Source: Escherichia coli
GTDB lineage: Bacteria; Pseudomonadota; Gammaproteobacteria; Enterobacterales; Enterobacteriaceae
Length of the DNA: 64,000 bases
Direction: 5' to 3' (one strand)
Assembly: GCF_003334785.1 (NCBI RefSeq)
Contig: NZ_QOWV01000012.1
Under the pieces are notes generated by a model. The model saw only the letters and a program-made list of their open reading frames with translations, was not told where the DNA came from and searched no databases. Every line of letters starts with the position of its first letter. The stretch's first letter is position 1. This document shows, piece by piece, positions 1,506 through 24,675 of this stretch. Both the position numbers and the translations under genes were made by a program.

Positions 1506-1612
1506 CATCGTTTCCGATGGAAGCATAATAAGCTTTTTCTGCTTCTGCCGGTGGAATATGGCCCTGCCTTTCCAGCAATCGTCGATTGTTATACCAGTCC
1601 ACCCACGTGAGT
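1506..1612 (-). mobile_element. IS3-family transposase 3'-terminal remnant
   Basis: Minus-strand translation reads ...DELTTLTWVDWYNNRRLLERQGHIPPAEAEKAYYAS, a typical IS3-family OrfB C-terminus; only ~35 codons present, so a decayed fragment. Confidence 0.5.
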
Positions 1613-3195: not shown

Positions 3196-3393
3196 ATGGC
3201 TACAGCCGCAGCCGGCAGTAACATGACGTTCTCACCGTCACAGAATGGTACGTCACTGGACCTGCAGGCCGGACTGGAAGCCCGTGTCCGGGAAAATATC
3301 ACCCTGGGCGTTCAGGCAGGTTATGTCCACAGCGTCAGCGGCAGCAGCGCTGAAGGCTATAACGGTCAGGCCACGCTGAATGTGACCTTCTGA
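3196..3393 (+). pseudogene. flu: antigen 43 autotransporter, C-terminal beta-barrel fragment only
   Basis: Translation ...GSNMTFSPSQNGTSLDLQAGLEARVRENITLGVQAGYVHSVSGSSAEGYNGQATLNVTF matches the extreme C-terminus of Ag43; upstream sequence in the same frame is unrelated, so the gene is truncated. Confidence 0.6.
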
Positions 3394-3507
3394 CAGAACC
3401 ATCGCCTCTCTGTGGTCCCGGTCATCATGATCGGGACCCGGACCGGCGCAACGGATATTCAACGCCACATTCGCTGGCATTAACAATAACATGATATTCA
3501 TCACGGA

Positions 3508-5049
3508 GTGACTATGTTACAGATAGTCGGCGCGCTGATCCTGCTGATCGCAGGATTTGCCATTCTTCGCCTTTTGTTCAGAGCATTAATCAGCACGGCT
3601 TCTGCGCTGGCAGGGCTCATATTGCTGTGTCTGTTCGGCCCGGCCTTACTGGCTGGCTATATCACCGAACGCATAACCCGGTTGTTCCATATTCGCTGGC
3701 TGGCAGGCGTATTTCTGACGATTGCCGGAATGATCATCAGCTTCATGTGGGGACTTGATGGTAAACATATCGCGCTGGAGGCTCACACCTTTGACTCTGT
3801 GAAATTTATTCTGACCACCGCTCTCGCCGGTGGTCTGCTGGCTGTTCCCCTGCAGATCAAAAACATTCAGCAGAACGGGATCACACCAGAAGATATCAGC
3901 AAGGAAATTAACGGGTATTACTGCTGTTTTTATACTGCCTTTTTCCTTATGGCGTGTTCTGCATGCGCACCATTGATCGCGTTACAGTACGATATTTCAC
4001 CGTCACTGATGTGGTGGGGCGGGTTGTTGTACTGGCTGGCTGCATTAGTGACGCTGCTATGGGCGGCCAGCCAAATCCAGGCGCTGAAAAAACTGACCTG
4101 TGCCATCAGCCAGACACTGGAAGAACAACCGGTGCTCAACAGTAAATCGTGGCTGACCAGTTTGCAAAACGATTACAGCCTTCCTGACTCACTGACGGAG
4201 CGCATCTGGCTGACGCTCATTTCTCAACGGATTTCCCGGGGAGAGCTGAGGGAATTTGAACTGGCAGACGGAAACTGGTTACTGAACAATGCCTGGTATG
4301 AAAGAAACATGGCAGGGTTTAACGAACAGTTGAAAGAGAACCTGTCATTCACACCTGATGAACTGAAAACGCTCTTCCGGAACCGCCTGAATTTATCACC
4401 GGAAGCGAATGACGATTTTCTCGATCGTTGCCTGGACGGCGGTGACTGGTATCCCTTTTCAGAAGGTCGCCGTTTTGTATCATTCCATCACGTGGATGAG
4501 CTTCGTGTCTGTGCCTCCTGCGGGCTGACAGAAGTACATCATGCCCCGGAAAATCATAAGCCGGATCCGGAATGGTACTGCTCCTCTCTTTGTCGCGAAA
4601 CAGAAACACTGTGTCAGGAAATTTATGAACGCCCTTACAACAGCTTTATTTCCGATGCAACGGCGAATGGTCTGATTCTCATGAAACTGCCGGAAACCTG
4701 GAGTACAAATGAGAAAATGTTTGCTTCCGGAGGGCAGGGACATGGGTTTGCCGCTGAACGGGGAAACCATATTGTCGACAGAGTCCGTCTGAAAAACGCA
4801 CGGATCCTCGGTGATAATAATGCCAGAAATGGAGCAGACAGACTGGTCAGCGGAACAGAAATCCAGACGAAATATTGTTCAACTGCAGCCCGTAGCGTCG
4901 GTGCGGCATTCGACGGACAAAACGGACAGTATCGTTACATGGGAAATAATGGCCCCATGCAACTGGAAGTCCCCCGTGATCAGTATGCCGGCGCTGTTGA
5001 AACCATGAGGAATAAGATCCGCGAAGGTAAAGTAACCGCGCTGAAATGA
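3508..5049 (+). CDS. yeeR: CP4-44-type inner membrane protein YeeR homologue (513 aa)
   Basis: Hydrophobic N-terminal half; position after a flu remnant and before yeeS/yeeT/cbeA/cbtA mirrors the CP4-44 gene order. Confidence 0.6.
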   Translation: MTMLQIVGALILLIAGFAILRLLFRALISTASALAGLILLCLFGPALLAGYITERITRLFHIRWLAGVFLTIAGMIISFMWGLDGKHIALEAHTFDSVKFILTTALAGGLLAVPLQIKNIQQNGITPEDISKEINGYYCCFYTAFFLMACSACAPLIALQYDISPSLMWWGGLLYWLAALVTLLWAASQIQALKKLTCAISQTLEEQPVLNSKSWLTSLQNDYSLPDSLTERIWLTLISQRISRGELREFELADGNWLLNNAWYERNMAGFNEQLKENLSFTPDELKTLFRNRLNLSPEANDDFLDRCLDGGDWYPFSEGRRFVSFHHVDELRVCASCGLTEVHHAPENHKPDPEWYCSSLCRETETLCQEIYERPYNSFISDATANGLILMKLPETWSTNEKMFASGGQGHGFAAERGNHIVDRVRLKNARILGDNNARNGADRLVSGTEIQTKYCSTAARSVGAAFDGQNGQYRYMGNNGPMQLEVPRDQYAGAVETMRNKIREGKVTALK

Positions 5050-5219
5050 GTCCGGAAGCTGCCGGCATTGCTGCCTGTCTGATGACGTACAGTCATCATG
5101 CCTGTCGTACGGAGTGTTATGCCATGACGGTCCATTATTACCGGCTGCGGGATTACGCCCTGCAGCATCCGGAATGCAGCGCCATTATGCGCATCATCGA
5201 CTGAATGGAGAGAAGTACA

Positions 5220-5696
5220 ATGCAACAGCTTTCCTTTCTGCCCGGAGAGATGACGCCCGGCGAGCGCAGCCTCATTCAACGGGCCCTGAAAACCCTGGAC
5301 CGCCATCTTCATGAACCCGGCGTGGCCTTCACCTCCACCCGTGCGGCACGAGAATGGCTGATTCTGAACATGGCGGGACTGGAGCGTGAAGAGTTCCGGG
5401 TGCTGTATCTGAACAACCAGAATCAGCTGATTGCCGGTGAAACCCTCTTCACCGGCACCATCAACCGCACGGAAGTCCATCCCCGTGAAGTGATTAAACG
5501 CGCCCTGTATCACAATGCCGCTGCTGTGGTGCTGGCACACAATCACCCGTCCGGTGAAGTCACACCCAGCAAGGCAGACCGCCTTATCACGGAACGTCTG
5601 GTACAGGCACTGGGCCTGGTGGATATCCGGGTGCCGGACCATCTGATAGTCGGTGGCAGCCAGGTTTTCTCCTTTGCCGAACATGGTCTGCTTTAA
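5220..5696 (+). CDS. yeeS: RadC-like JAB-domain protein (YeeS/YfjY/YkfG family)
   Basis: MQQLSFLPGEMTPGERSLIQRAL... with the HNHPSGEVTPS JAB/MPN metal motif; start taken at the internal Met matching family length. Confidence 0.7.
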   Translation: MQQLSFLPGEMTPGERSLIQRALKTLDRHLHEPGVAFTSTRAAREWLILNMAGLEREEFRVLYLNNQNQLIAGETLFTGTINRTEVHPREVIKRALYHNAAAVVLAHNHPSGEVTPSKADRLITERLVQALGLVDIRVPDHLIVGGSQVFSFAEHGLL

Positions 5697-5758
5697 CCCG
5701 TCACAACCACATCACACCTGTTTTCACTTTTATCTTCTGTCTTCAGAGGTATCCCACT

Positions 5759-5980
5759 ATGAAAATCATCACCCGTGGCGAAGCCATGCGTATTCACCGT
5801 CAGCATCCGGCATCCCGTCTTTTTCCGTTCTGTACCGGCAAATACCGCTGGCACGGCAGTGCTGAAGCGTATACCGGTCGTGAAGTGCAGGATATTCCCG
5901 GTGTGCTGGCCGTGTTTGCAGAACGCCGTAAGGACAGTTTTGGTCCGTATGTCCGGCTGATGAGCGTCACCCTGAACTGA
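5759..5980 (+). CDS. yeeT: DUF987 protein YeeT homologue (73 aa)
   Basis: 73-aa ORF MKIITRGEAMRIHRQHPASRLFPFCTGKYRWHG... in the conserved position between radC-like gene and cbeA. Confidence 0.65.
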   Translation: MKIITRGEAMRIHRQHPASRLFPFCTGKYRWHGSAEAYTGREVQDIPGVLAVFAERRKDSFGPYVRLMSVTLN

Positions 5981-6142
5981 TGTTCCGTCACCCGGAAAAC
6001 GAGTACGACTGGCTGAGCTCAGACGCCGCTGTGGATGAGGTCCTGCTCATCAACGAATACACCTTTACCGAAGCCGGTCTGCGCGCCGGCTGACCCGTCA
6101 TCGTTAAACTATCATTCACCGATTTTCTGTGAGGATTTTATC

Positions 6143-6511
6143 GTGTCAGACACACTTTCCGGGACAACGCATCCCGATGACAATGACGACCATCCCTGGT
6201 GGGGACTACCCTGCACAGTGACGCCCTGTTTCGGCGCCCGTCTGGTGCAGGAGGGTAACCGCCTGCATTACCTTGCCGACCGCGCCGGTATCAGAGGCCT
6301 GTTCAGCGATGCAGATGCGTACCACCTGGACCAGGCCTTTCCGCTGCTGATGAAACAACTGGAACTCATGCTCACCAGCGGTGAACTGAATCCCCGCCAT
6401 CAGCATACCGTCACGCTGTATGCAAAAGGTCTGACCTGCAAAGCTGACACTCTCGGTAGCGGTGGTTACGTTTATCTGGCTGTTTATCCGACGCCCGAAA
6501 CGAAAAAGTAA
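6143..6511 (+). CDS. cbeA: type IV antitoxin CbeA (YeeU family)
   Basis: GTG start; [52 protein letters not shown]... matches the YeeU/CbeA family; immediately upstream of cbtA. Confidence 0.75.
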
Positions 6512-6600
6512 ACCACCGGAATAACCTTCTGCTCCGGCCTGGTGCTTTCACCACGCCACTTTTCCATTTTTCATCTCTGCATATCAGGAAAACCTTCAGT

Positions 6601-6975
6601 ATGAAAACATTACCCGATACACACGTACGGGAGGCATCGAGCTGCCCGTCTCCCGTCACCATCTGGCAGACTCTGCTCTCCCGACTACTGGGCCAGCATT
6701 ACGGCCTTACACTGAATGACACACCGTTCGCCGATGAACGTGTGATTGAGCAGCATATTGAAGCTGGCATTTCACTGTGTGATGCGGTGAATTTTCTCGT
6801 GGAAAAATACGCGCTGGTGCGTACCGACCAGCCGGGATTCAGCACTTGTCCCCGCTCTCAGTTAATAAACAGTATTGATATCCTCCGGGCTCGCAGGGCG
6901 ACCGGCCTGATGACCCGCGACAATTACAGAACGGTAAATAACATTACCCTGGGTAAGCATCCGGAGAAACGATGA
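6601..6975 (+). CDS. cbtA: toxin CbtA (YeeV family, cytoskeleton-inhibiting)
   Basis: 124-aa [79 protein letters not shown]...; conserved antitoxin-toxin order. Confidence 0.75.
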
Positions 6976-7460
6976 AACTTTCCCTGATGCTGGAAGCCGA
7001 CAGAATTAATGTGCAGGCACTGAACATGGGGCGAATTGTCGTTGACGTCGATGGTGTTAATCTCACTGAACTGATTAACAAGGTCGCTGAAAACGGTTAT
7101 TCACTCCGCGTGGTGGAGGAATCCGACCAACAGTCAACCTGCACACTACCACCGTTTGCAACCCTTGCCGGCATACGCTGCAGTACCGCACATATCACGG
7201 AAAAGGATAACGCCTGGCTGTACTCGCTGTCGCATCAGACCAGTGACGTTGGTGAATCAGAATGGATTCATTTCACAGGTAGCGGATATCTGTTACGTAC
7301 CGATGCGTGGTCATATCCGGTTCTGCGGCTTAAACGCCTGGGGCTGTCAAAAACGTTCCGTCGTCTGGTTATCACACTTACCCGACGTTATGGCGTCAGT
7401 CTCATTCATCTGGATGCCAGCGCTGAATGCCTGCCGGGTTTACCCACTTTCAACTGGTAA
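6972..7460 (+). CDS. yeeW: CP4-like prophage protein (YeeW-like), function unknown
   Basis: ATGA start/stop overlap with cbtA as in the CP4-44 cbtA-yeeW arrangement; 162 aa. Confidence 0.5.
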
Positions 7461-7471
7461 CCAGGAACAAC

Positions 7472-7669
7472 ATGAAATCATTAACCACGGAAACCGCACT
7501 GGATATTCTGATTGCGTGGCTGCAGGACAATATCGACTGCGAATCGGGAATTATCTTTGACAACAATGAGGATAAAACGGATTCAGCAGCACTGTTGCCC
7601 TGTATCGAACAGGCCAGAGAGGATATCCGTACCCTGCGCCAACTGCAGCTTCAGCACCAGAACCGGTGA
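7472..7669 (+). CDS. small hypothetical prophage protein (65 aa)
   Basis: ORF following yeeW-like gene; internal Met chosen; no motif recognised. Confidence 0.3.
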   Translation: MKSLTTETALDILIAWLQDNIDCESGIIFDNNEDKTDSAALLPCIEQAREDIRTLRQLQLQHQNR

Positions 7670-8386
7670 GTCTTACTCACCAGACTTCATTCCACTGACG
7701 CCAGCCTGAACAGGGCTGGCATTTTCATTTATCTGCAAAAAGGAATATCGATTATGTCTGATATCACAGCCTACCGTCCGGAAGTGGTCAACGAGAATAC
7801 GGACGTTATCTGCTCAACCAGCATCCGCCGCATTCTGGCTGTACGAAAGAGTTCACTGCTGCAAATCGACACAATTATCCGGCATCAAGTGAGCGATATC
7901 AGTTAACAGATATAGATGGAGAAGATGCTTTTATCCGGATTGGTTCTATCGCGATGGTGCGAGTACTACTTGATGCAATGAAGCCTGTCGAGGAAGATGA
8001 CGAGTAACAGAGCTCGGTATCTCAATCAGGAGCTGATTGTCCTGGTTCGATGCCGAAAACCAGTGATTTTTCGTGTTGGTATCTGTGTTGGTATAAGATG
8101 ATATTGTTTATTATTAACAATTTTAAATCATGAGGTTAAGTCACATGTTTGAGTCCGGCCTTCGCACCTTCGCACCTTCGCACCATCGGAACATCAATAG
8201 ACATCAACGGACGTTTTTTTATGACTGAAATCCGCGCCACACAAGGCTTTTCGCTATTTTTCGCTCAACCTAAGTCAACCTACATCAACTTACTGATGTG
8301 GATACAGCTACAGCTGCGGCTATACCCCGATTCGATAATGTTTGTACCCACACAAAACCCTTGAAAGGCTACAAGGCTGAAATTGT

Positions 8387-8605
8387 CTAAACCATAGAGA
8401 TGATTTTTATGATCCAGTCTTTCTCTTGTTGAGATAGTTCCAGTTTGCTCACTCGTGTTAAGAAGGTATTGATCACCTGAACATCCGAATTGGTGAGCCT
8501 ATTTAATAGAGCGGGTGGTATACCTTTACTAACAATCGCTTTGCGGTGACTTTCGTAGTTTTTATTACTCATTGTTGATCCTAAAAAATCATTGTATGGC
8601 GGCAT
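8387..8605 (-). CDS. hypothetical protein (72 aa); possibly C-terminal part of a frameshifted gene
   Basis: ORF in track directly downstream of the 8629..8871 ORF on the same strand, different frame. Confidence 0.3.
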   Translation of the reverse strand: MPPYNDFLGSTMSNKNYESHRKAIVSKGIPPALLNRLTNSDVQVINTFLTRVSKLELSQQEKDWIIKIISMV

Positions 8606-8628
8606 TGATCGTTTCCAGCAACCTTTAC

Positions 8629-8871
8629 TTACTCACTTCGAACTGCATCCTCGTAGACTGTTCCACTACAATAATCGAAAAGGCGCGGATGTCCATTCAG
8701 GTATCCCGCTAATACGTATAGCAATAACAATGGCTTATGCGGCGCGCGCTGTTCACCCTTGTGCCAGATTTTTATATTGGCAATTGCCTGCTGTAGCGAT
8801 TTACTGGAAGCTATTGATATCCCTAGCAGTGAAATAATTGCGATCATGCTCGCAAATTTTCTGCTGTTCAA
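8629..8871 (-). CDS. hypothetical protein (80 aa) with RAPHKPLLLLYVLAGYLNGHPRLFDY motif; possibly N-terminal part of a frameshifted gene
   Basis: ORF in track, divergent from the HNH gene; followed 24 bp downstream by a second ORF in another frame. Confidence 0.3.
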   Translation of the reverse strand: MNSRKFASMIAIISLLGISIASSKSLQQAIANIKIWHKGEQRAPHKPLLLLYVLAGYLNGHPRLFDYCSGTVYEDAVRSE

Positions 8872-8950
8872 GCCTGCAAGTGAAGATATATTACCTTGAT
8901 CTCATTTGTTTTTTTGCTGCCTGTTCTGAGAACGTATAAGGACATTCTCC

Positions 8951-9601
8951 ATGAATAAACTCCCTGATCATCTTCCGCGGCGGTATATCATCGAAGCTAT
9001 CCATTTATGGGATGCGGGAGAAACTCATCAGTTCCAGCCTGCGCGGTTGTATGAGATTGAATATCATGGCCGACGTTACCCCTCGAAGGCGATTGCTGGC
9101 ATCGCAGCGACATTGATGACGGGGACGCAATTTACCCCTGCGGATTTCACCGGCGGAATAAAATCTAAATGTGTCAAGCTACTCATAGAGCAGGGATTTC
9201 ATATTCATCTGGATAAAGCCGCTGCGGCTCCCATAGCCGACGTTCTGTTCCCGGATGAGTTGCCGTCGCAGGAGACATACCTTGAAGGTGCGGCGATAAA
9301 GGTGACAGTAAACCGCTATGAACGCGATAAAAAGGCCCGAGATAAAGCGGTCGAACATCATGGATGCCAGTGCAACGTATGCGGTGTTGATCTGGTGAAG
9401 ATCTATGGTGATATCGCTGAAGGCTTTATCCATGTGCATCACCTGGTGCCGCTGTCAGCCATTAAAGAGGATTACCAGCTGGATCCAGTTAATGATTTGC
9501 TGCCTGTGTACCCTAATTGCCATGCGATGTTGCACCGACGCAAACCACCGTTTACGCCGGAGCAGTTAAAAGCGCTGATGGATGCGAATAAATCAAATTA
9601 A
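8951..9601 (+). CDS. HNH endonuclease with an extra N-terminal domain (type IV restriction-like)
   Basis: C-terminal HHGCQCNVCG...FIHVHHLVPLS...NDLLPVYPNCHAMLHRR is a canonical HNH (C-x2-C, HH, N, C-x2-H) motif; about 120 aa of unrelated N-terminal sequence; AAGGA Shine-Dalgarno upstream of ATG. Confidence 0.7.
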   Translation: MNKLPDHLPRRYIIEAIHLWDAGETHQFQPARLYEIEYHGRRYPSKAIAGIAATLMTGTQFTPADFTGGIKSKCVKLLIEQGFHIHLDKAAAAPIADVLFPDELPSQETYLEGAAIKVTVNRYERDKKARDKAVEHHGCQCNVCGVDLVKIYGDIAEGFIHVHHLVPLSAIKEDYQLDPVNDLLPVYPNCHAMLHRRKPPFTPEQLKALMDANKSN

Positions 9602-9608
9602 TGAACGC

Positions 9609-10589
9609 TCACCTTTCGCGCCAAAACTGCAAAATTGCTTCTACAAACTTGTCAGAAATAATCCCCCGACGGGCTGCCGTGCTGAAATGACTGCTTCGCA
9701 GTGCCGTCGTCCAGTTCTCCGGTGACCGGTACGCTGAACCGTAATATCCCGTGCTTAAATCGTCCGGGTCTTCATCAGGCGCGTTCGTCAGTCCTCTTTC
9801 ACCTTGTTGCTGGAAGTCGACGAAAATAATATTGGCTAAAACATTATTTTGATAATTGCCATAAATAACTTCATACGCATGAGGGAAATTTTCTTTCCAG
9901 TACCAGGTGGTATCGCCGCAAAACCACGGTGCGTCAGTAATATTATTAAGCTGAGAATGGTATTGTTTTAGATCCCTACGAAAGGCTTCAACCATATGAT
10001 TAAAGTGTTGAGGGTGTGACGCGTAGTCACTGGTCATTAAGTCAAATTCGCCTTGCATCCAGCATACGCCGAGGAATTTGTTATGCGGATTTTTTGCCAG
10101 TGCGGCTCGCGTTCTGCTGACTAAATCCTGGTATAGCGGAGTATCCGTTCCCCAACGACAAGCATCATGGCTGGCTCCGTGCCGTTCTGAATATGTCCCT
10201 TCGCTGCCCGCGGTAAAAGCCGATCCGCCACGGCAACACGGAACGATGAGAACCCCTGCATTATCAGGAATAAAGGGCAGTAATTTCCGTGCTATATGCA
10301 GTGCCTGGCCAACGGTGCCGTACTGTGTTTGATGATTCGTTGCCAGAGGATGGTGATAACCCTGCATATCCTGAACATCGTGTGGGCAGTGAGTCAGTGG
10401 AATCATGTCGTTAAAGTGACATGGCGGGCCTCCGGGATGCGTATGCGCAAATCTCGCTAATTGTTTGATTCTGGGATGAGGCGCATCTTCCCTGTCCGGT
10501 AATGGCAGTCCTTCGCCATACGCCATGGCATTAGACTGACCAGCAATGGTAAGAATATAGTAATAATCGGGCGATATTATTGCGTTCAT
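9609..10589 (-). CDS. nanS: 9-O-acetyl-N-acetylneuraminate esterase NanS
   Basis: MNAIISPDYYYILTIAGQSNAMAYGEG... matches NanS (YjhS); start at the internal Met giving 326 aa; synteny with nanM and nanC. Confidence 0.85.
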   Translation of the reverse strand: MNAIISPDYYYILTIAGQSNAMAYGEGLPLPDREDAPHPRIKQLARFAHTHPGGPPCHFNDMIPLTHCPHDVQDMQGYHHPLATNHQTQYGTVGQALHIARKLLPFIPDNAGVLIVPCCRGGSAFTAGSEGTYSERHGASHDACRWGTDTPLYQDLVSRTRAALAKNPHNKFLGVCWMQGEFDLMTSDYASHPQHFNHMVEAFRRDLKQYHSQLNNITDAPWFCGDTTWYWKENFPHAYEVIYGNYQNNVLANIIFVDFQQQGERGLTNAPDEDPDDLSTGYYGSAYRSPENWTTALRSSHFSTAARRGIISDKFVEAILQFWRER

Positions 10590-12935: not shown

Positions 12936-13951
12936 CAGATCAAAAATCACGCAATCCATACAACAAAACCAGATTTGCAATTCGTGTCACAAAATATGTC
13001 GATATTTTTCTAAGAAGAAGATGCCATGTGAAGCCAAACGAACACTTGCGGAGGCCTTCACAAACCAAGGGTTGTTATTTAATTATCTGTTTTATAAGTA
13101 ATTTATTTAGAGTATAAACAAGGAAAGATTTGCAAGATAACTCAGTGGGCGTGGTGAAAATAAGTGTTTACCCGCCATCAGGCTGAGCATAATTCTCATC
13201 ATGAAATATGTTTCCTGGTTTGTGGCTTGTAGCTGGTCACTCCTGAAGTCTCTCTGGAGAGGCTTGTTGATGTTGGTGTTTTCAGGATGATGTTTCACTT
13301 AGCTTGTTTGCCGAATAGCCCGGCGAACAGCTGTGATTGAGGAAGGTTTAAGTCGCAGTGACCAAAGCCATATTTACCAACGGATGCAGATGAAAAAATC
13401 ATCTCCTGCTTTCCCCCATATCTCCAGGATAAAAAGGAATGTAACAATCTCATGAACTAAACTGACGAACCAGCCAGGAATAATCGCTAGGGACCTAAGA
13501 ATTAGCCTGATAATAGCTACTAAGAAATTACTGCGTTCCATGAAATAGCCATTTTGTGGCAAATGGAGTTGTCTAATAATGTCATATGTGAGACGGATAG
13601 TTGAACGAATATTAAATTTTGCTGAATTTTTTATGTTGATTTTACTTGTTACAGAACATATCACATGATATATAGATAAGATTAGTTGCATTAATGATGA
13701 GGGTTATTATTAGATTCGTATCCGATTGATAAATATATAAAGGTACATAGCATGCAAGAGCATAGCGTTTGTATGGCAACGTTATTATAAGTAACTGTTG
13801 CTACTCCATTTAAGTTCACTCAGAAGAACTGGTCCACTTACGTTAGTTATTAAGCAAACGTTCGCTTTTATAAACATAATCAGGATAAAAATGTTGGATT
13901 ATTGCTAACCCAGCACAGCTAGTGCGCGTCTGTAATTATAAGGGAAAAACG

Positions 13952-14554
13952 ATGAAGAATAAGGCTGATAACAAAAAAAGGAACTTCCTGACCCATAGTG
14001 AAATCGAATCACTCCTTAAAGCAGCAAATACCGGGCCTCATGCAGCACGTAATTATTGTCTGACTTTGCTTTGTTTTATTCATGGTTTCCGGGCGAGTGA
14101 AATTTGTCGATTGAGGATTTCGGATATTGATCTTAAGGCAAAGTGTATATATATCCATCGATTAAAAAAAGGCTTTTCAACAACGCACCCGCTATTGAAC
14201 AAAGAAGTTCAGGCTTTAAAAAACTGGTTGAGTATCCGTACTTCGTACCCGCATGCTGAGAGCGAATGGGTATTTTTATCGCGTAAGGGAAATCCGCTTT
14301 CTCGGCAACAGTTTTACCATATTATCTCGACTTCCGGTGGTAATGCCGGGTTGTCACTGGAGATTCATCCGCACATGTTACGCCATTCGTGTGGTTTTGC
14401 TTTGGCGAATATGGGAATAGATACGCGACTTATCCAGGATTATCTTGGGCATCGCAATATTCGTCATACTGTCTGGTATACCGCCAGCAATGCAGGGCGT
14501 TTTTACGGCATCTGGGATAGAGCCAGAGGACGACAGCGTCACGCTGTTTTATAG
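13952..14554 (+). CDS. fimB: type 1 fimbriae switch recombinase FimB
   Basis: MKNKADNKKRNFLTHSEIESLLKAANTGPHAARNYCLTLL... tyrosine recombinase, 200 aa. Confidence 0.9.
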   Translation: MKNKADNKKRNFLTHSEIESLLKAANTGPHAARNYCLTLLCFIHGFRASEICRLRISDIDLKAKCIYIHRLKKGFSTTHPLLNKEVQALKNWLSIRTSYPHAESEWVFLSRKGNPLSRQQFYHIISTSGGNAGLSLEIHPHMLRHSCGFALANMGIDTRLIQDYLGHRNIRHTVWYTASNAGRFYGIWDRARGRQRHAVL

Positions 14555-15031
14555 AGATAGTTGAGATACCAGGGATGGTGTTAAAAACTACATTATTCTT
14601 ACGATATATCAAAAATGATTAACCATTTATTAATTGATGTTATTGTAAGTGTGATTATTAATTTTCATAATAAACATTAAGTTAACCATATCCATACAAA
14701 ATACAATGGTTTATGTTCTTAAAAATAAATAAACAAAATCATTCATAAATTTACACATCACTTAAATTCTCCTGTTTCCGCACTTTTTTCTTTATTTTTT
14801 AAGCAACTGGAAGTTAATCCACTGCAATCTATTGTTATATTGAATCAAATCAATGAAAATAGATGTTATCACATCAGTGATATTTTATTTTTGTATGATA
14901 TTTAATGTAATTGACTGATAGCCACATCACTTCGTGTGTGGTTATCTTTTTATCTATTGGGCTAATTTTGACCGATTGAGGTTTCCTATAGGTATTCATT
15001 CAAATATATCTCAGTCAGGAGTACTACTATT

Positions 15032-15628
15032 GTGAGTAAACGTCGTTATCTTACCGGTAAAGAAGTTCAGGCCATGATGCAGGCGGTTTGTTACGGGGCA
15101 ACGGGAGCCAGAGATTATTGTCTTATTCTGTTGGCATATCGGCATGGGATGCGTATTAGTGAACTGCTTGATCTGCATTATCAGGATCTTGACCTTAATG
15201 AAGGTCGAATAAATATTCGCCGACTGAAGAACGGATTTTCTACCGTTCACCCGTTACGTTTTGATGAGCGTGAAGCCGTGGAACGCTGGACCCAGGAACG
15301 TGCTAACTGGAAAGGCGCTGACCGGACCGACGCTATATTTATTTCTCGCCGTGGGAGTCGGCTTTCTCGCCAGCAGGCCTATCGCATTATTCGCGATGCC
15401 GGTATTGAAGCTGGAACCGTAACGCAGACTCATCCTCATATGTTAAGGCATGCTTGCGGTTATGAACTGGCGGAGCGTGGTGCAGATACTCGTTTAATTC
15501 AGGATTATCTCGGGCATCGAAATATTCGCCATACTGTACGTTATACCGCCAGTAATGCTGCTCGTTTTGCCGGATTATGGGAAAGAAATAATCTCATAAA
15601 CGAAAAATTAAAAAGAGAAGAGGTTTGA
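15032..15628 (+). CDS. fimE: type 1 fimbriae switch recombinase FimE
   Basis: GTG start; MSKRRYLTGKEVQAMMQAVCYGATGARDYCLILLAYRHGMRISELL...; 198 aa. Confidence 0.9.
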   Translation: MSKRRYLTGKEVQAMMQAVCYGATGARDYCLILLAYRHGMRISELLDLHYQDLDLNEGRINIRRLKNGFSTVHPLRFDEREAVERWTQERANWKGADRTDAIFISRRGSRLSRQQAYRIIRDAGIEAGTVTQTHPHMLRHACGYELAERGADTRLIQDYLGHRNIRHTVRYTASNAARFAGLWERNNLINEKLKREEV

Positions 15629-15675
15629 TTTAACTCATTGATAATAAAGTTAAAAAACAAATAAATACAAGACAA

Positions 15676-15989
15676 TTGGGGCCATTTTGACTCATAGAGG
15701 AAAGCATCGCGCACAAACTTTTTCAGTTTATTTGTTGGCTTAATATTCTATTGTTATCTTTATTTATAGATTTTTATATTGCATGAGGTGGTTTTTGGAG
15801 AGAAGAATGAGGAAGATGCGTCGAGCCACAGAAACGTTAGCTTTACATATAGCGGAGGTGATGTGAAATTAATTTACAAGAGAAATAATTTACATATCAA
15901 ACAGTTAGATGCTTTTTGTCGTTTTTTAATATTTTTATGCTTGAGAAAAAATACGTAACTTATTTATGATATGGACAGTTTGGCCCCAA
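15676..15989. promoter_or_regulatory. fimS: fimS invertible phase-variation switch (314 bp) bounded by 9-bp inverted repeats, captured in the fimA-ON orientation
   Basis: TTGGGGCCA at 15676-15684 and TGGCCCCAA at 15981-15989; promoter-like TTGAGA / TATGATA inside the element pointing toward fimA. Confidence 0.85.
15944..15971 (+). promoter_or_regulatory. fimA sigma70 promoter inside fimS (-35 TTGAGA, -10 TATGATA)
   Basis: Hexamers read directly from sequence, about 18 bp apart, immediately inside the right inverted repeat and oriented toward fimA. Confidence 0.55.
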
Positions 15990-16108
15990 ATGTTTCATCT
16001 TTTAGGGGAAAACTGTGCAGTGTTGGCAGTCAAACTCGTTGACAAAACAAAGTGTACAGAACGACTGCCCATGTCGATTTAGAAATAGTTTTTTTAAAGG
16101 AAAGCAGC

Positions 16109-16657
16109 ATGAAAATTAAAACTCTGGCAATCGTTGTTCTGTCGGCTCTGTCCCTCAGTTCCGCAGCGGCTCTGGCCGATACTACGACGGTAAATGGTGG
16201 GACCGTTCACTTTAAAGGGGAAGTTGTTAACGCCGCTTGCGCAGTTGATGCAGGCTCTGTTGATCAAACCGTTCAGTTGGGACAGGTTCGTACCGCTAGC
16301 CTGAAGCAGGCTGGAGCAACCAGCTCTGCCGTTGGTTTTAACATTCAGTTGAATGATTGCGATACCACTGTTGCCACAAAAGCCGCTGTTGCCTTCTTAG
16401 GTACGGCAATTGATGCTACGCGTACTGATGTACTGGCTCTGCAGAGTTCTGCTGCAGGTAGTGCAACAAACGTTGGCGTGCAGATCCTGGACAGAACAGG
16501 CAATGCTCTGACGCTGGACGGTGCGACATTTAGTGCACAAACAACCCTGAATAACGGTACCAACACCATTCCGTTCCAGGCGCGTTATTATGCAATCGGC
16601 GAGGCAACCCCGGGTGCAGCTAATGCGGATGCAACCTTCAAGGTTCAGTATCAATAA
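16109..16657 (+). CDS. fimA: type 1 fimbrial major subunit FimA
   Basis: [23 protein letters not shown] signal peptide, pilin sequence ending ATFKVQYQ; 182 aa. Confidence 0.9.
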
Positions 16658-16721
16658 CCTACCCAGGTTCAAGGACGTCATTACGGGCAGGGATGCCCAC
16701 CCTTGTGCGATAAAAATAACG

Positions 16722-17261
16722 ATGAAAAGGAAGAGATTATTTCTGTTAGCGTCGTTGCTGCCAATGTTTGCTCTGGCCGGAAATAAATGGAATACCACGC
16801 TGCCCGGCGGAAATATGCAATTTCAGGGCGTCATTATTGCGGAAACTTGCCGGATTGAAGCCGGTGATAAACAAATGACGGTCAATATGGGGCAAATCAG
16901 CAGTAACCGGTTTCATGCGGCAGGGGAAGATAGCGCACCGGTGCCTTTTGTTATTCATTTACGGGAATGTAGCACGGTGGTGAGTGAACGTGTGGGGGTG
17001 GCGTTTCACGGTGTCGCGGATGGTAAAAATCCGGATGTGCTTTCCGTGGGAGAGGGGCCAGGGATAGCCACCAATATTGGCGTAGCGTTGTTTGATGATG
17101 AAGGAAACCTCGTACCGATTAATCGTCCTCCAGCAAACTGGAAACGGCTTTACTCAGGCTCTACTTCGCTACATTTCATCGCCAAATATCGTGCTACCGG
17201 GCGTCGGGTTACTGGCGGCATCGCCAATGCCCAGGCCTGGTTCTCTTTAACCTATCAGTAA
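16722..17261 (+). CDS. fimI: fimbrial protein FimI
   Basis: [19 protein letters not shown] signal peptide, pilin-like sequence ending FSLTYQ; 179 aa from the internal start. Confidence 0.85.
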
Positions 17262-17297
17262 TTGTTCAGCAGATAATGTGATAACAGGAACAGGACA

Positions 17298-18023
17298 GTG
17301 AGTAATAAAAACGTCAATGTAAGGAAATCGCAGGAAATAACATTCTGCTTGCTGGCAGGTATCCTGATGTTTATGGCAATGATGGTTGCCGGACGCGCTG
17401 AAGCGGGAGTGGCCTTAGGTGCGACTCGCGTAATTTATCCGGCAGGGCAAAAACAAGTGCAACTTGCCGTGACAAATAATGATGAAAATAGTACCTATTT
17501 AATTCAATCATGGGTGGAAAATGCCGATGGTGTAAAGGATGGTCGTTTTATCGTGACGCCTCCTCTGTTTGCGATGAAGGGAAAAAAAGAGAATACCTTG
17601 CGTATTCTTGATGCAACAAATAACCAATTGCCACAGGATCGGGAAAGTTTATTCTGGATGAATGTTAAAGCGATTCCGTCAATGGATAAATCAAAATTGA
17701 CTGAGAATACGCTACAGCTCGCAATTATCAGCCGCATTAAACTGTACTATCGCCCGGCTAAATTAGCGTTGCCACCCGATCAGGCCGCAGAAAAATTAAG
17801 ATTTCGTCGTAGCGCGAATTCTCTGACGCTGATTAACCCGACACCCTATTACCTGACGGTAACAGAGTTGAATGCCGGAACCCGGGTTCTTGAAAATGCC
17901 TTGGTGCCTCCAATGGGCGAAAGCACGGTTAAATTGCCTTCTGATGCGGGAAGCAATATTACTTACCGAACAATAAATGATTATGGTGCACTTACCCCCA
18001 AAATGACGGGCGTAATGGAATAA
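17298..18023 (+). CDS. fimC: periplasmic fimbrial chaperone FimC
   Basis: GTG start; 241 aa; PapD-like chaperone sequence; operon position. Confidence 0.9.
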   Translation: MSNKNVNVRKSQEITFCLLAGILMFMAMMVAGRAEAGVALGATRVIYPAGQKQVQLAVTNNDENSTYLIQSWVENADGVKDGRFIVTPPLFAMKGKKENTLRILDATNNQLPQDRESLFWMNVKAIPSMDKSKLTENTLQLAIISRIKLYYRPAKLALPPDQAAEKLRFRRSANSLTLINPTPYYLTVTELNAGTRVLENALVPPMGESTVKLPSDAGSNITYRTINDYGALTPKMTGVME

Positions 18024-18089
18024 CGCAGGGGGAATTTTTCGCCTGAATAAAAAGAATTGACTGCCGGGTGACTTTAAACCGGAGGAATA

Positions 18090-20726
18090 ATGTCATATCT
18101 GAATTTAAGACTTTACCAGCGAAACACACAATGCTTGCATATTCGTAAGCATCGTTTGGCTGGTTTTTTTGTCCGGCTCTTTGTTGCCTGTGCTTTTGCC
18201 GCACAGGCACCTTTGTCATCTGCCGAACTCTATTTTAACCCGCGTTTTTTAGCGGATGATCCCCAGGCTGTGGCCGATTTATCGCGTTTTGAAAATGGGC
18301 AAGAATTACCGCCAGGGACGTATCGCGTCGATATCTATTTGAATAATGGTTATATGGCAACGCGTGATGTCACATTTAATACGGGCGACAGTGAACAAGG
18401 GATTGTTCCCTGCCTGACACGCGCGCAACTCGCCAGTATGGGGCTGAATACGGCTTCTGTCGCCGGTATGAATCTGCTGGCGGATGATGCCTGTGTGCCA
18501 TTAACCACAATGGTCCAGGACGCTACTGCGCATCTGGATGTTGGTCAGCAGCGACTGAACCTGACGATCCCTCAGGCATTTATGAGTAATCGCGCGCGTG
18601 GTTATATTCCTCCTGAGTTATGGGATCCCGGTATTAATGCCGGATTGCTCAATTATAATTTCAGCGGAAATAGTGTACAGAATCGGATTGGGGGTAACAG
18701 CCATTATGCATATTTAAACCTACAGAGTGGGTTAAATATTGGTGCGTGGCGTTTACGCGACAATACCACCTGGAGTTATAACAGTAGCGACAGATCATCA
18801 GGTAGCAAAAATAAATGGCAGCATATCAATACCTGGCTTGAGCGAGACATAATACCGTTACGTTCCCGGCTGACGCTGGGTGATGGTTATACTCAGGGCG
18901 ATATTTTCGATGGTATTAACTTTCGCGGCGCACAATTGGCCTCAGATGACAATATGTTACCCGATAGCCAAAGAGGATTTGCCCCGGTGATCCACGGTAT
19001 TGCTCGTGGTACTGCACAGGTCACTATTAAACAAAATGGGTATGACATTTATAATAGTACGGTGCCACCGGGGCCTTTTACCATCAACGATATCTATGCC
19101 GCAGGTAATAGTGGTGACTTGCAGGTAACGATCAAAGAGGCTGACGGCAGCACGCAGATTTTTACCGTACCCTATTCGTCAGTCCCGCTTTTGCAACGTG
19201 AAGGGCATACTCGTTATTCCATTACGGCAGGAGAATACCGTAGTGGAAATGCGCAGCAGGAAAAACCCCGCTTTTTCCAGAGTACATTACTCCACGGCCT
19301 TCCGGCTGGCTGGACAATATATGGTGGAACGCAACTGGCGGATCGTTATCGTGCTTTTAATTTCGGTATCGGGAAAAACATGGGGGCACTGGGCGCTCTG
19401 TCTGTGGATATGACGCAGGCTAATTCCACACTTCCCGATGACAGTCAGCATGACGGACAATCGGTGCGTTTTCTCTATAACAAATCGCTCAATGAATCAG
19501 GCACGAATATTCAGTTAGTGGGTTACCGTTATTCGACCAGCGGATATTTTAATTTCGCTGATACAACATACAGTCGAATGAATGGCTACAACATCGAAAC
19601 ACAGGATGGAGTTATTCAGGTTAAGCCGAAATTCACCGACTATTACAACCTCGCTTATAACAAACGCGGGAAATTACAGCTCACCGTTACTCAGCAACTC
19701 GGGCGCACATCAACACTGTATTTGAGTGGTAGCCATCAAACTTATTGGGGAACGAGTAATGTCGATGAGCAATTCCAGGCTGGATTAAATACTGCGTTCG
19801 AAGATATCAACTGGACGCTCAGCTATAGCCTGACGAAAAACGCCTGGCAAAAAGGACGTGATCAGATGTTAGCGCTTAACGTCAATATTCCTTTCAGCCA
19901 CTGGCTGCGTTCTGACAGTAAATCTCAGTGGCGACATGCCAGTGCCAGCTACAGCATGTCACACGATCTCAACGGTCGGATGACCAATCTGGCTGGTGTA
20001 TACGGTACGTTGCTGGAAGACAACAACCTCAGCTATAGCGTGCAAACCGGCTATGCCGGGGGAGGCGATGGTAATAGCGGAAGCACAGGCTACGCCACGC
20101 TGAATTATCGCGGTGGTTACGGCAATGCCAATATCGGTTACAGCCATAGCGATGATATTAAGCAGCTCTATTACGGAGTCAGCGGTGGGGTATTGGCTCA
20201 TGCCAATGGCGTAACGCTGGGGCAGCCGTTAAACGATACGGTGGTGCTTGTTAAAGCGCCTGGCGCAAAAGATGCAAAAGTCGAAAACCAGACGGGGGTG
20301 CGTACCGACTGGCGCGGTTATGCCGTGCTGCCTTATGCCACTGAATATAGGGAAAACAGAGTGGCGCTGGATACCAATACCCTGGCTGATAACGTCGATT
20401 TAGATAACGCGGTCGCTAACGTTGTTCCCACTCGTGGGGCGATCGTGCGAGCAGAGTTTAAAGCGCGCGTTGGGATAAAACTGCTCATGACGCTAACCCA
20501 CAATAATAAGCCGCTGCCGTTTGGGGCGATGGTGACATCAGAGAGTAGCCAGAGTAGCGGCATTGTTGCGGATAATGGTCAGGTTTACCTCAGCGGAATG
20601 CCTTTAGCGGGAAAAGTTCAGGTGAAATGGGGAGAAGAGGAAAATGCTCACTGTGTCGCCAATTATCAACTGCCACCAGAGAGTCAGCAGCAGTTATTAA
20701 CCCAGCTATCAGCTGAATGTCGTTAA
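18090..20726 (+). CDS. fimD: outer-membrane fimbrial usher FimD
   Basis: 878-aa usher following the chaperone gene. Confidence 0.9.
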   Translation: MSYLNLRLYQRNTQCLHIRKHRLAGFFVRLFVACAFAAQAPLSSAELYFNPRFLADDPQAVADLSRFENGQELPPGTYRVDIYLNNGYMATRDVTFNTGDSEQGIVPCLTRAQLASMGLNTASVAGMNLLADDACVPLTTMVQDATAHLDVGQQRLNLTIPQAFMSNRARGYIPPELWDPGINAGLLNYNFSGNSVQNRIGGNSHYAYLNLQSGLNIGAWRLRDNTTWSYNSSDRSSGSKNKWQHINTWLERDIIPLRSRLTLGDGYTQGDIFDGINFRGAQLASDDNMLPDSQRGFAPVIHGIARGTAQVTIKQNGYDIYNSTVPPGPFTINDIYAAGNSGDLQVTIKEADGSTQIFTVPYSSVPLLQREGHTRYSITAGEYRSGNAQQEKPRFFQSTLLHGLPAGWTIYGGTQLADRYRAFNFGIGKNMGALGALSVDMTQANSTLPDDSQHDGQSVRFLYNKSLNESGTNIQLVGYRYSTSGYFNFADTTYSRMNGYNIETQDGVIQVKPKFTDYYNLAYNKRGKLQLTVTQQLGRTSTLYLSGSHQTYWGTSNVDEQFQAGLNTAFEDINWTLSYSLTKNAWQKGRDQMLALNVNIPFSHWLRSDSKSQWRHASASYSMSHDLNGRMTNLAGVYGTLLEDNNLSYSVQTGYAGGGDGNSGSTGYATLNYRGGYGNANIGYSHSDDIKQLYYGVSGGVLAHANGVTLGQPLNDTVVLVKAPGAKDAKVENQTGVRTDWRGYAVLPYATEYRENRVALDTNTLADNVDLDNAVANVVPTRGAIVRAEFKARVGIKLLMTLTHNNKPLPFGAMVTSESSQSSGIVADNGQVYLSGMPLAGKVQVKWGEEENAHCVANYQLPPESQQQLLTQLSAECR

Positions 20727-20735
20727 GGGGGCGTG

Positions 20736-21266
20736 ATGAGAAACAAACCTTTTTATCTTCTGTGCGCTTTTTTGTGGCTGGCGGTGAGTCACGCTTTGGC
20801 TGCGGATAGCACGATTACTATCCGCGGCTATGTCAGAGATAACGGCTGTAGTGTGGCCGCTGAATCAACCAATTTTACTGTTGATCTGATGGAAAACGCG
20901 GCGAAGCAATTTAACAACATTGGCGCGACGACTCCTGTTGTTCCATTTCGTATTTTGCTGTCACCCTGTGGTAATGCCGTTTCTGCCGTAAAAGTTGGGT
21001 TTACCGGCGTTGCAGATAGCCACAATGCCAATCTGCTTGCACTTGAAAATACGGTGTCAGCGGCTTCGGGACTGGGAATACAGCTTCTGAATGAGCAGCA
21101 AAATCAAATACCCCTTAATGCTCCATCGTCCGCGATTTCGTGGACGACCCTGACGCCGGGTAAACCAAATACGTTGAATTTTTACGCCCGGCTAATGGCG
21201 ACACAGGTGCCTGTCACTGCGGGGCATATCAATGCCACGGCTACCTTCACTCTTGAATATCAGTAA
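20736..21266 (+). CDS. fimF: minor fimbrial subunit FimF
   Basis: [22 protein letters not shown] signal peptide; pilin ending ATFTLEYQ. Confidence 0.9.
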
Positions 21267-21278
21267 CTGGAGATGCTC

Positions 21279-21782
21279 ATGAAATGGCGCAAACGTGGGT
21301 ATTTATTGGCGGCAATATTGGCGCTCGCAAGTGCGACGATACAGGCAGCCGATGTCACCATCACGGTGAACGGTAAGGTCGTCGCCAAACCGTGTACGGT
21401 TTCCACCACCAATGCCACGGTTGATCTCGGCGATCTTTATTCTTTCAGTCTGATGTCTGCCGGGGCGGCATCGGCCTGGCATGATGTTGCGCTTGAGTTG
21501 ACTAATTGTCCGGTGGGAACGTCGAGGGTCACCGCCAGCTTCAGCGGGGCAGCCGACAGTACCGGATATTATAAAAACCAGGGGACCGCGCAAAACATCC
21601 AGTTAGAGCTACAGGATGACAGTGGCAACACATTGAATACTGGCGCAACCAAAACAGTTCAGGTGGATGATTCCTCACAATCAGCGCACTTCCCGTTACA
21701 GGTCAGAGCATTGACGGTAAATGGCGGAGCCACTCAGGGAACCATTCAGGCAGTGATTAGCATCACCTATACCTACAGCTGA
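21279..21782 (+). CDS. fimG: minor fimbrial subunit FimG
   Basis: MKWRKRGYLLAAILALASATIQA signal peptide; 167 aa. Confidence 0.9.
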   Translation: MKWRKRGYLLAAILALASATIQAADVTITVNGKVVAKPCTVSTTNATVDLGDLYSFSLMSAGAASAWHDVALELTNCPVGTSRVTASFSGAADSTGYYKNQGTAQNIQLELQDDSGNTLNTGATKTVQVDDSSQSAHFPLQVRALTVNGGATQGTIQAVISITYTYS

Positions 21783-21801
21783 ACCCGAAGAGATGATTGT
21801 A

Positions 21802-22704
21802 ATGAAACGAGTTATTACCCTGTTTGCTGTACTGCTGATGGGCTGGTCGGTAAATGCCTGGTCATTCGCCTGTAAAACCGCCAATGGTACCGCTATCCCT
21901 ATTGGCGGTGGCAGCGCCAATGTTTATGTAAACCTTGCGCCCGCCGTGAATGTGGGGCAAAACCTGGTCGTGGATCTTTCGACGCAAATCTTTTGCCATA
22001 ACGATTATCCGGAAACCATTACAGACTATGTCACACTGCAACGAGGCTCGGCTTATGGCAGCGTGTTATCTAATTTTTCCGGGACCGTAAAATATAGTGG
22101 CAGTAGCTATCCATTTCCTACCACCAGCGAAACGCCGCGCGTTGTTTATAATTCGAGAACGGATAAGCCGTGGCCGGTGGCGCTTTATTTGACGCCTGTG
22201 AGCAGTGCGGGCGGGGTGGCGATTAAAGCTGGCTCATTAATTGCCGTGCTTATTTTGCGACAGACCAACAACTATAACAGCGATGATTTTCAGTTTGTGT
22301 GGAATATTTACGCCAATAATGATGTGGTGGTGCCTACTGGCGGCTGCGATGTTTCTGCTCGTGATGTCACCGTTACTCTGCCGGACTACCCTGGTTCAGT
22401 GCCAATTCCTCTTACCGTTTATTGTGCGAAAAGCCAAAATCTGGGGTATTACCTCTCCGGCACAACCGTAGATGCGGGCAACTCGATTTTCACCAATACC
22501 GCGTCGTTTTCACCAGCGCAGGGCGTCGGCGTACAGTTGACGCGCAACGGTACGATTATTCCAGCGAATAACACGGTATCGTTAGGAGCAGTAGGGACTT
22601 CGGCGGTAAGTCTGGGATTAACGGCAAATTACGCACGTACCGGAGGGCAGGTGACTGCAGGGAATGTGCAATCGATTATTGGCGTGACTTTTGTTTATCA
22701 ATAA
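21802..22704 (+). CDS. fimH: mannose-binding fimbrial tip adhesin FimH
   Basis: MKRVITLFAVLLMGWSVNAWSFACKTANGTAIPIGGGSANVYVNLAPAVNVGQNLVVDLSTQIFCHNDYPETITDYVTLQRGSAYG...; 300 aa. Confidence 0.9.
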   Translation: MKRVITLFAVLLMGWSVNAWSFACKTANGTAIPIGGGSANVYVNLAPAVNVGQNLVVDLSTQIFCHNDYPETITDYVTLQRGSAYGSVLSNFSGTVKYSGSSYPFPTTSETPRVVYNSRTDKPWPVALYLTPVSSAGGVAIKAGSLIAVLILRQTNNYNSDDFQFVWNIYANNDVVVPTGGCDVSARDVTVTLPDYPGSVPIPLTVYCAKSQNLGYYLSGTTVDAGNSIFTNTASFSPAQGVGVQLTRNGTIIPANNTVSLGAVGTSAVSLGLTANYARTGGQVTAGNVQSIIGVTFVYQ

Positions 22705-22775
22705 AGAAATCACAGGGCATTGCTAATGCAGTTACGCAATATTACCTGAAGCTAAAAACCTGCACGTTAGCCCTT

Positions 22776-22813
22776 TGTAGGCCAGATAAGACGCGTCAGC
22801 GTCGCATCTGGCA
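22776..22813. repeat. REP-like palindromic element downstream of fimH
   Basis: tgtaggccagataagacgcgtcagcgtcgcatctggca resembles the REP consensus (GCC.GATGCG.CG...CGCATC.GGC). Confidence 0.5.
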
Positions 22814-22939
22814 TAAACAAAGCGCACTTTGCTGGTCTGTTCCCCTCACCCTAACCCTCTCCCCGGAGGGGCGAGGGGACTGTCCGGGCACATTTTTAGA
22901 CTTTGTCATCAGTCAGAGCCTGCCATTGGCAGGCTCTGG

Positions 22940-23131
22940 TGTTCTTTTACGCTACCTTGCTAATAATCAGCCCAACCACGGAGTTGACCAGCTCCAGCAG
23001 ACCCCAGGTTTTCAACGTGTCTTTTACTGACAGGTCAAAATTATCTAAGAGGCATTGCTAATGCAGCGAATGTGTCTGAACCTGCGGTCTTTGTCAGTAC
23101 CAGCATCAGGCCAATGCCGAATACCACCCAG
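22940..23131 (-). pseudogene. gntP: gluconate permease gntP remnant: first ~19 codons fused through ~55 bp of junction sequence to the last ~30 codons
   Basis: Minus strand reads MHVLNILWVVFGIGLMLVL, then [17 protein letters not shown] and a stop; downstream frame reads [29 protein letters not shown]; the ~1.1 kb transporter core is absent. Confidence 0.75.
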
Positions 23132-23204
23132 AGAATGTTAAGCACATGCATAACGTTTTACCTTACCTGGTTGAACCGTTGTTATTTTGGGCGACATGTT
23201 ATGT

Positions 23205-23222
23205 AAATTGGTCAACCATTGT
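23205..23222. promoter_or_regulatory. UxuR/ExuR-type operator (imperfect AAATTGGT..ACCAATT palindrome) upstream of uxuA
   Basis: aaattggtcaaccattgtt read from sequence. Confidence 0.45.
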
Positions 23223-23311
23223 TGCGATGAATGTCACATCCTCTGATCAATAACCATCGATTACCCTTTGCTGCAATTTGCAGCAACAACCATGAGAGTG
23301 AAATTCTTGTG

Positions 23312-23329
23312 ATGTGGTTAACCAATTTC
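23312..23329. promoter_or_regulatory. second UxuR/ExuR-like operator with adjacent TTGACA -35 element of the uxuA promoter region
   Basis: atgtggttaaccaatttc contains the palindrome TGGTTAACCA; TTGACA lies about 18 bp downstream. Confidence 0.4.
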
Positions 23330-23490
23330 AGAATTCGGGTTGACATGTCTTACCAAAAGGTAGAACTTATACGCCATCTCATCCGATGCAACGCCACGGC
23401 TGCGGTCTGGTTGTTCATCCGGATACCTAAACAACTCCAGGGTTCCGCGTCTCTTTGCTGTGGAACCCACTATGTGAAAGAGGAAAAATC

Positions 23491-24675
23491 ATGGAACAGA
23501 CCTGGCGCTGGTACGGCCCAAACGATCCGGTTTCTTTAGCTGATGTCCGTCAGGCGGGCGCAACTGGCGTGGTTACCGCGCTGCACCATATCCCGAACGG
23601 CGAAGTATGGTCCGTAGAAGAGATCCTCAAACGCAAGGCGATCGTTGAAGACGCAGGCCTGGTGTGGTCTGTCGTAGAAAGCGTACCAATTCACGAAGAT
23701 ATCAAAACCCACACTGGCAACTATGAGCAGTGGATCGCTAACTATCAGCAGACTCTGCGCAACCTGGCGCAGTGCGGCATTCGCACCGTGTGCTACAACT
23801 TCATGCCGGTGCTCGACTGGACCCGTACTGACCTCGAATACGTGCTGCCAGACGGCTCCAAAGCTCTGCGCTTCGACCAGATCGAATTCGCTGCATTCGA
23901 AATGCATATCCTGAAACGTCCAGGCGCGGAAGCGGATTACACCGAAGAAGAAATTGCTCAGGCTGCTGTTCGCTTCGCCACTATGAGCGACGAAGACAAA
24001 GCGCGTCTGACGCGTAACATCATTGCCGGTCTGCCGGGCGCGGAAGAAGGGTATACCCTCGACCAGTTCCGTAAGCACCTGGAGCTGTACAAAGATATCG
24101 ATAAAGCGAAGCTGCGCGAAAACTTTGCCGTCTTCCTGAAAGCGATTATTCCAGTTGCTGAAGAAGTTGGCGTGCGTATGGCGGTTCACCCGGACGATCC
24201 GCCGCGCCCGATCCTTGGCCTGCCGCGCATTGTTTCCACCATTGAAGATATGCAGTGGATGGTTGATACCGTAAACAGCATGGCGAACGGTTTCACCATG
24301 TGCACCGGTTCCTACGGCGTGCGTGCTGACAACGATCTGGTTGATATGATCAAGCAGTTCGGTCCGCGTATTTACTTCACCCATCTGCGCTCCACCATGC
24401 GTGAAGATAACCCGAAAACCTTCCACGAAGCGGCGCACCTGAACGGTGACGTTGATATGTACGAAGTGGTGAAAGCGATTGTTGAAGAAGAACACCGTCG
24501 TAAAGCGGAAGGCAAAGAAGACCTGATCCCGATGCGTCCGGACCACGGTCATCAGATGCTGGACGACCTGAAGAAGAAAACCAACCCAGGTTACTCCGCA
24601 ATTGGTCGTCTGAAAGGCCTGGCCGAAGTTCGCGGTGTCGAACTGGCGATCCAGCGCGCTTTCTTTAGCCGTTAA
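23491..24675 (+). CDS. uxuA: mannonate dehydratase UxuA
   Basis: [45 protein letters not shown]...; 394 aa from the internal Met. Confidence 0.9.

Follow-up and report, generated by a model that had tools for sequence, protein, structure and literature searches.

Positions 15676–15989 of the window, the whole 64-kb stretch of DNA that was analysed, almost certainly represent fimS, the canonical switch by which the type 1 fimbrial operon of E. coli undergoes phase variation, captured here as ON. Everything by which a fimS switch can be recognized from sequence was found: the repeats, the locus, the homology, the recombinases, the promoter and the inversion. No evidence counts against either the identity of the element or its orientation. 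Both the switch with its recombinases and the significance of either orientation became known in 1985-86, the cited sources for fimS being Abraham et al. 1985 and Klemm 1986.

Repeats, homology and promoter of the fimS element

The fimS element is defined as a 314-bp segment bounded by 9-bp inverted repeats (PMC9820224, PMC2647292). In the window the left repeat, IRL (TTGGGGCCA), and the right repeat, IRR (TGGCCCCAA), are exact reverse complements and span 314 bp, and each 9-mer is present in one copy in the 64 kb. Perfect 9-bp inverted pairs at a spacing of 250–400 bp number 44 in the window, and a 298-Gb scan for the 18-base pattern made up of both 9-mers at the fimS spacing returned 65 matches in unrelated phyla and 16 genuine ones. 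Thus, a 9-bp inverted repeat is statistically undistinctive and the identification of fimS rests on homology and context; given the same counts, we dropped the argument that the inverted repeat is significant in itself. The original prediction had described a 314-bp element with these bounding repeats; its coordinates and sequence details were right, and homology and context identify the element as fimS. The coordinates of the element and of the surrounding features are collected below.

Table 1. Features of the fim locus in the window.
Feature	Position	Strand	Basis or comment
fimB, tyrosine recombinase inverting fimS both ways	13952..14554	+	200 aa, identical to MG1655 FimB
fimE, tyrosine recombinase, mainly fimS ON to OFF	15032..15628	+	198 aa, identical to MG1655 FimE
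Putative IHF site outside IRL, WATCAANNNNTTR	15631..15643	-	Consensus match only, at the position of IHF site I
fimS invertible element, ON orientation	15676..15989	no strand	314 bp; K-12 homology, inverse in relative, in-silico digests
IRL, left 9-bp inverted repeat, TTGGGGCCA	15676..15684	no strand	Same 9-mer for fimS in PMC9820224
HinfI diagnostic site in fimS	15689-15693		
BstUI diagnostic site in fimS	15708-15711		
Putative IHF site inside fimS	15895..15907	+	Consensus match only, at the position of IHF site II
fimA promoter	15941..15970	+	-35 TTGAGA 15941-15946, 18-bp spacer, -10 TATGAT 15965-15970; sigma-70 match, literature position
SnaBI diagnostic site in fimS	15952-15957		
IRR, right 9-bp inverted repeat, TGGCCCCAA	15981..15989	no strand	Window match
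Conserved motif outside IRR (TTGGGnGAAAACTGT in relatives)	16001..16016	+	Conserved across genera; carries 16004 G-to-A
fimA, major fimbrial subunit, first switch-driven gene	16109..16657	+	Open 182-aa ORF, ATG 16109
fimI, fimC, fimD, fimF, fimG, fimH, rest of operon	16722..22704	+	All open, no internal stops

The abundance of comparable inverted pairs, and the matches that the two-repeat pattern makes by chance in unrelated phyla, would also speak for a reading in which the repeats and promoter hexamers are coincidental, or in which the inversion is an assembly error, and the window lacks a functional switch. This reading is refuted by the 99% identity to K-12, the exact gene context, the precision of the inversion and the 249 other genomes in the ON orientation (see below), and we give it next to no credence.

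The identification as fimS draws on several comparisons. The element is identical at 311 of 314 positions (99%) to the reverse complement of MG1655 fimS (4542682–4542995) and lies between fimE and fimA, with fimB and fimE directly upstream; in the annotation of a colinear relative, NZ_CP051001.1, fimB, fimE and fimA stand at the matching loci. The likeness to fimS of K-12 and UPEC strains extends to the 9-bp repeats, the length of 314 bp, the position between fimE and fimA, the FimB and FimE proteins, the promoter hexamers and the diagnostic SnaBI, HinfI and BstUI sites. The window differs from MG1655 by three SNPs inside fimS and by 16 residues of FimA, the latter being normal allelic variation with respect to K-12 FimA, while a G-to-A change at position 16004 is private to the window.

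The fimS elements of Klebsiella, Raoultella, Citrobacter, Enterobacter and Shimwellia have identical 9-bp repeats and the same fimE-element-fimA synteny. The elements of these other Enterobacteriaceae genera measure 314–317 bp, or 325 bp in Enterobacter soli, and their interiors have diverged, with weak alignment to the E. coli interior. The UPEC switches hyxS (with FimX) and ipuS (with IpuA and IpuB) work on a similar principle, in which a tyrosine recombinase inverts a promoter segment between short inverted repeats, but they lie elsewhere, control different genes and have repeats of 16 or 7 bp; a switch of the hyxS or ipuS type was not found in the window.

The literature places PfimA inside fimS. 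Our promoter scan of positions 15560–16160 returned 3 sigma-70-like sites, where 2.3 were expected, and the top site was TTGAGA-18-TATGAT, which agrees with the consensus at 10 of 12 positions, reads toward fimA and lies 11 bp from IRR. TTGAGA and TATGATA hexamers near the right end of the element, directed toward fimA, had been part of the original prediction; both are on the + strand, where they form this best site, with TATGAT(A) at 15965–15970(1). When the 16 Enterobacteriaceae fimS elements are oriented ON, the -10 region is kept in all except that of Enterobacter soli (15/16). From the position of the promoter, fimA transcription would start at approximately 15975–15977, just inside IRR. 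In addition, the two IHF consensus matches sit at the published relative positions of IHF-1, which adjoins IRL, and IHF-2, which is within fimS, and are listed as putative sites.

Orientation of the switch and its frequency in genomes

The orientation of the element was determined by in-silico versions of two published restriction assays. With the published SnaBI primers (AGTAATGCTGCTCGTTTTGC / GACAGAGCCGACAGAACAAC), which define a 602-bp amplicon, the window gave fragments of 404/198 bp and the same sequence with the element computationally flipped gave 160/442 bp; the assay as published yields 403/198 when fimS is ON and 440/161 when it is OFF. HinfI digestion of a 559-bp amplicon gave 75/484 bp for the window and 358/201 bp for the flipped element. 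The primers of this second assay are presumably those of the published protocol, the 559-bp length of the amplicon being equal to the sum of the published fragments. For HinfI the published fragments are 74/485 (ON) and 202/357 (OFF).

In the in-silico SnaBI assay MG1655 gave 161/442, which is the OFF pattern, and its fimS is the reverse complement of that of the window. The UTI89 reference fimS is likewise reported to be OFF, whereas the window is ON. Four independent lines, namely the SnaBI digest, the HinfI digest, the inverse relation to MG1655 and the direction of the promoter toward fimA, thus establish that the orientation of fimS in the window is ON. The same four lines bear out the phase-ON call of the original prediction, and the comparison includes the published OFF state, as the window matches the ON fragment sizes and the flipped element those of OFF.

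Positions 1–24000 of the window are colinear with the genome of E. coli O157:H16 98-3133. Once positions 15685–15980 are flipped in 98-3133, three single-base differences are left in these 24 kb (8825, 15927 and 16004), and what separates the two sequences is thus a precise inversion whose breakpoints fall within the repeats. At the level of sequence, the finding of the exact inverse in genomes that are otherwise nearly identical offers direct evidence, by comparison, that the fimS segment inverts. The nearest relatives of the window, with approximately 100% identity over the 24 kb, are all OFF; each of them matches in two pieces, with 314 bp missing.

A census of deposited genomes was taken in which colinearity with the window across the switch was scored as ON and colinearity with the computationally flipped window as OFF. 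The locus is present in 4,722 of the 5,426 RefSeq complete E. coli genomes, 249 of them ON and 4,460 OFF. Deposited ON elements make up ~5.3% of the complete E. coli genomes that have the locus and show no obvious lineage pattern. Among Enterobacteriaceae species representatives with the fimE-element-fimA arrangement and the same 9-bp repeats, 14/16 are OFF and two are ON, E. coli E69 (CP089930.1) and Shimwellia pseudoproteus. The fimS element of E. coli E69 is 315 bp in length, not 314 bp. An ON orientation in an assembly is therefore uncommon but recurrent.

In the literature, FimE-driven switching from ON to OFF dominates over FimB, wild-type cells are mostly OFF because of this dominance of FimE, and OFF is the one orientation seen in aerated cultures. 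The minority of ON deposits fits the published picture. The census (approximately 5% of complete E. coli genomes and 2/16 representatives ON) may help in the interpretation of invertible promoters in assemblies. It also follows from the orientation that, when this genome is used as the mapping reference for fimS counts, ON and OFF are swapped relative to MG1655.

Recombinases, structural genes and the meaning of an ON consensus

The catalytic tetrads of both recombinases encoded upstream of fimS are complete, with R47, H141, R144 and Y176 in FimB and R41, H136, R139 and Y171 in FimE, the R-H-R-Y residues being those given in PMC9820224. On the mechanism known for this system, with the catalysis taken from the literature, FimB and FimE would cut and rejoin within the 9-bp inverted repeats and so flip the 314-bp segment, on DNA that at fimS is reported to be shaped by IHF and Lrp. 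In the state recorded in the window the promoter would stand beside IRR and read into fimAICDFGH, while in the opposite orientation, that of most genomes, it would read back toward fimE and the operon would be silent. Published work describes PfimA as joined to fimAICDFGH in ON and disconnected from it in OFF, with a Rho-dependent terminator within fimS that shortens the fimE transcript. The recorded ON state matters for any prediction of fim operon transcription made from the sequence.

One structural gene was suspected of being truncated. The RefSeq call for fimG (21279–21782) in the nearest relative starts at 21339 with a non-standard start codon and covers 147 aa. This truncation was ruled out, as the 167-aa ORF from the ATG at 21279 is open. 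The full ORF includes a signal peptide, and the short fimG of the relative is thus an annotation quirk and not a defect. We also asked whether some defect might hold the switch in one state, and found perfect repeats, wild-type FimB and FimE and no third Fim-like recombinase in the window. With the recombinases and all seven structural genes intact, the ON state is best taken as a reversible snapshot of a working switch.

Two observations concern small RNAs of the locus. The fimR2 sRNA, which in MG1655 is located just after fimA, corresponds to window positions 16668–16702, where there is a one-base difference (TTCAAGGACG here and TTCAGGGACG in MG1655); an exact match to fimR2 was sought in the window and none was found. 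An Rfam search of positions 13000–23500 found no family.

The ON consensus is somewhat unexpected because ON-to-OFF switching dominates when FimE is intact, ON being then the less stable state. Static growth, a colony founder effect, the choice of the assembler or a genetic bias are possible causes. An assembly would show the orientation favoured by its reads or by its assembler, and the sequenced DNA may have come from cells that were mostly ON. The original prediction took the sequenced population, or else the assembly consensus, to be predominantly piliated; ON can be asserted of the assembly consensus alone, as an assembly presents one orientation of a population that is usually mixed; moreover, the ON orientation is necessary for fimbriation and does not demonstrate it.

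A related account gives the orientation still less weight. The culture may have been a mixture of ON and OFF cells in which the assembled orientation was arbitrary or marginal, or reflected a founder effect, with little bearing on piliation. Static cultures are known to hold both orientations, aerated ones being mostly OFF, and sequencing libraries contain fimS in both orientations. The scatter of ON deposits among the complete genomes (~5%, with no obvious lineage pattern) and the OFF state of near-identical relatives are in keeping with such a mixture. No sequence evidence speaks against it, and it is compatible with the reading of mostly ON cells, from which it differs in the weight placed on the orientation. 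We consider it a real possibility, although one that falls short of probable.

The reading of a reversible snapshot was also weighed against a strain that is genetically biased toward ON or locked in it, through the cis change at 16004, through a trans mutation beyond the window in a gene such as fis, lrhA or hns, or through an additional recombinase such as FimX, HbiF or IpuA. Regulators and unlinked recombinases of this kind are known to shift the balance between ON and OFF, and an ON consensus is unusual for a genome with an intact fimE. Set against these points are the two perfect repeats, the two wild-type recombinases and the finding of no third Fim-like recombinase in the window. Taken together with the evidence on 16004 given below, which bears on the cis variant, we regard a genetic bias or lock as very improbable and retain the snapshot of a working switch as our reading.

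Position 16004 and other variable sequence in the window

Position 16004 lies in the fimA leader, 15 bp outside IRR, and is A in the window and G in the relatives. A 41-mer designed to seed solely across this variant was found in 0/5,426 complete E. coli genomes with the A and in 4,060 with the G. The A could be a true mutation or a sequencing error. For a genetic ON bias, the attraction of the change is that it is absent from all of these genomes and falls within a conserved motif, on a base that does not vary between genera. Against it, the substitution is next to a G run, where it could be a sequencing error, and 16004 is beyond the outer recombinase half-site of ~9 bp that we infer from the palindrome around IRR in other genera. 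Thus, a direct effect of the change on recombination is not expected. A YhaJ binding site covering 16004 was considered as well and ruled out, the published YhaJ footprint being within fimS.

The motif that carries the change reads TTGGGGGAAAACTGT in E. coli and resembles IRL with its inner flank in OFF genomes (TTGGGGCCAAACTGT). In Klebsiella, Raoultella, Citrobacter, Enterobacter and Shimwellia it is found as TTGGGnGAAAACTG at 12–13 bp from IRR, with a spacer that varies; Enterobacter soli is without the TTGGGnGAAAACTG motif outside IRR. From its sequence, the motif resembles a third, degenerate copy of IRL and the inner flank; solely when fimS is ON could it form a hairpin or, together with IRR, a palindrome in the DNA. 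In that orientation positions 16001–16016 can pair with 15975–15990, the motif being an inverted copy of 15975–15989, and an RNA from the fimA start proposed above would begin with a predicted two-part 5' hairpin.

Conservation of this pairing was examined in ON-oriented leaders. In 14 distinct sequences, few and related to one another, 91% of the cells of a hairpin model derived from the E. coli sequence were paired, compared to ≤57% in slid controls. Compensatory changes were seen at two hairpin pairs; at the one adjoining IRR the combinations A-U, U-A and U-G occur. Half of the pairs do not vary at all, and three of these are in IRR, where recombination constrains the sequence in any case. 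In 14/14 sequences the base at 16004 is paired to a C of IRR, and the 143-nt leader is predicted to fold with -33.2 kcal/mol when it carries the A and with -38.2 kcal/mol when it carries the G. The literature that we searched, which did not extend to the primary fim papers in subscription journals, contains no description of an IRR-side motif or hairpin of this kind.

By breaking an invariant C-G pair, the A at 16004 might alter the stability of fimA mRNA or the ON/OFF balance and in this way explain the ON state, an idea to which we attach only a slight chance. A functional link of any kind between the 16004 change and the ON state is in our judgement quite unlikely. The conserved motif with its hairpin and the private change at 16004 are a small lead, not a result, and the ON consensus is still best read as a reversible state of an intact switch.

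Other differences were noted away from fimS. A second private SNP is located at 8825. It falls in the region upstream of nanC/nanM/nanS (1–9700), which, by colinearity with the annotation of a relative, is a decayed island containing IS1/IS3/IS5 fragments, yeeR, CbtA/YeeU-type toxin-antitoxin genes, an antirestriction remnant and an HNH endonuclease. Further along, positions 45015–54316 (9.3 kb) hold a yjiT-like gene of the STY4851 family together with the type I restriction-modification genes hsdS, hsdM and hsdR, beside mrr, and in 98-3133 this segment is replaced by ~2.2 kb of IS600/IS30 sequence. The same segment is identical in NCTC9087 and other genomes and thus represents ordinary variation of the hsdRMS/mrr region.
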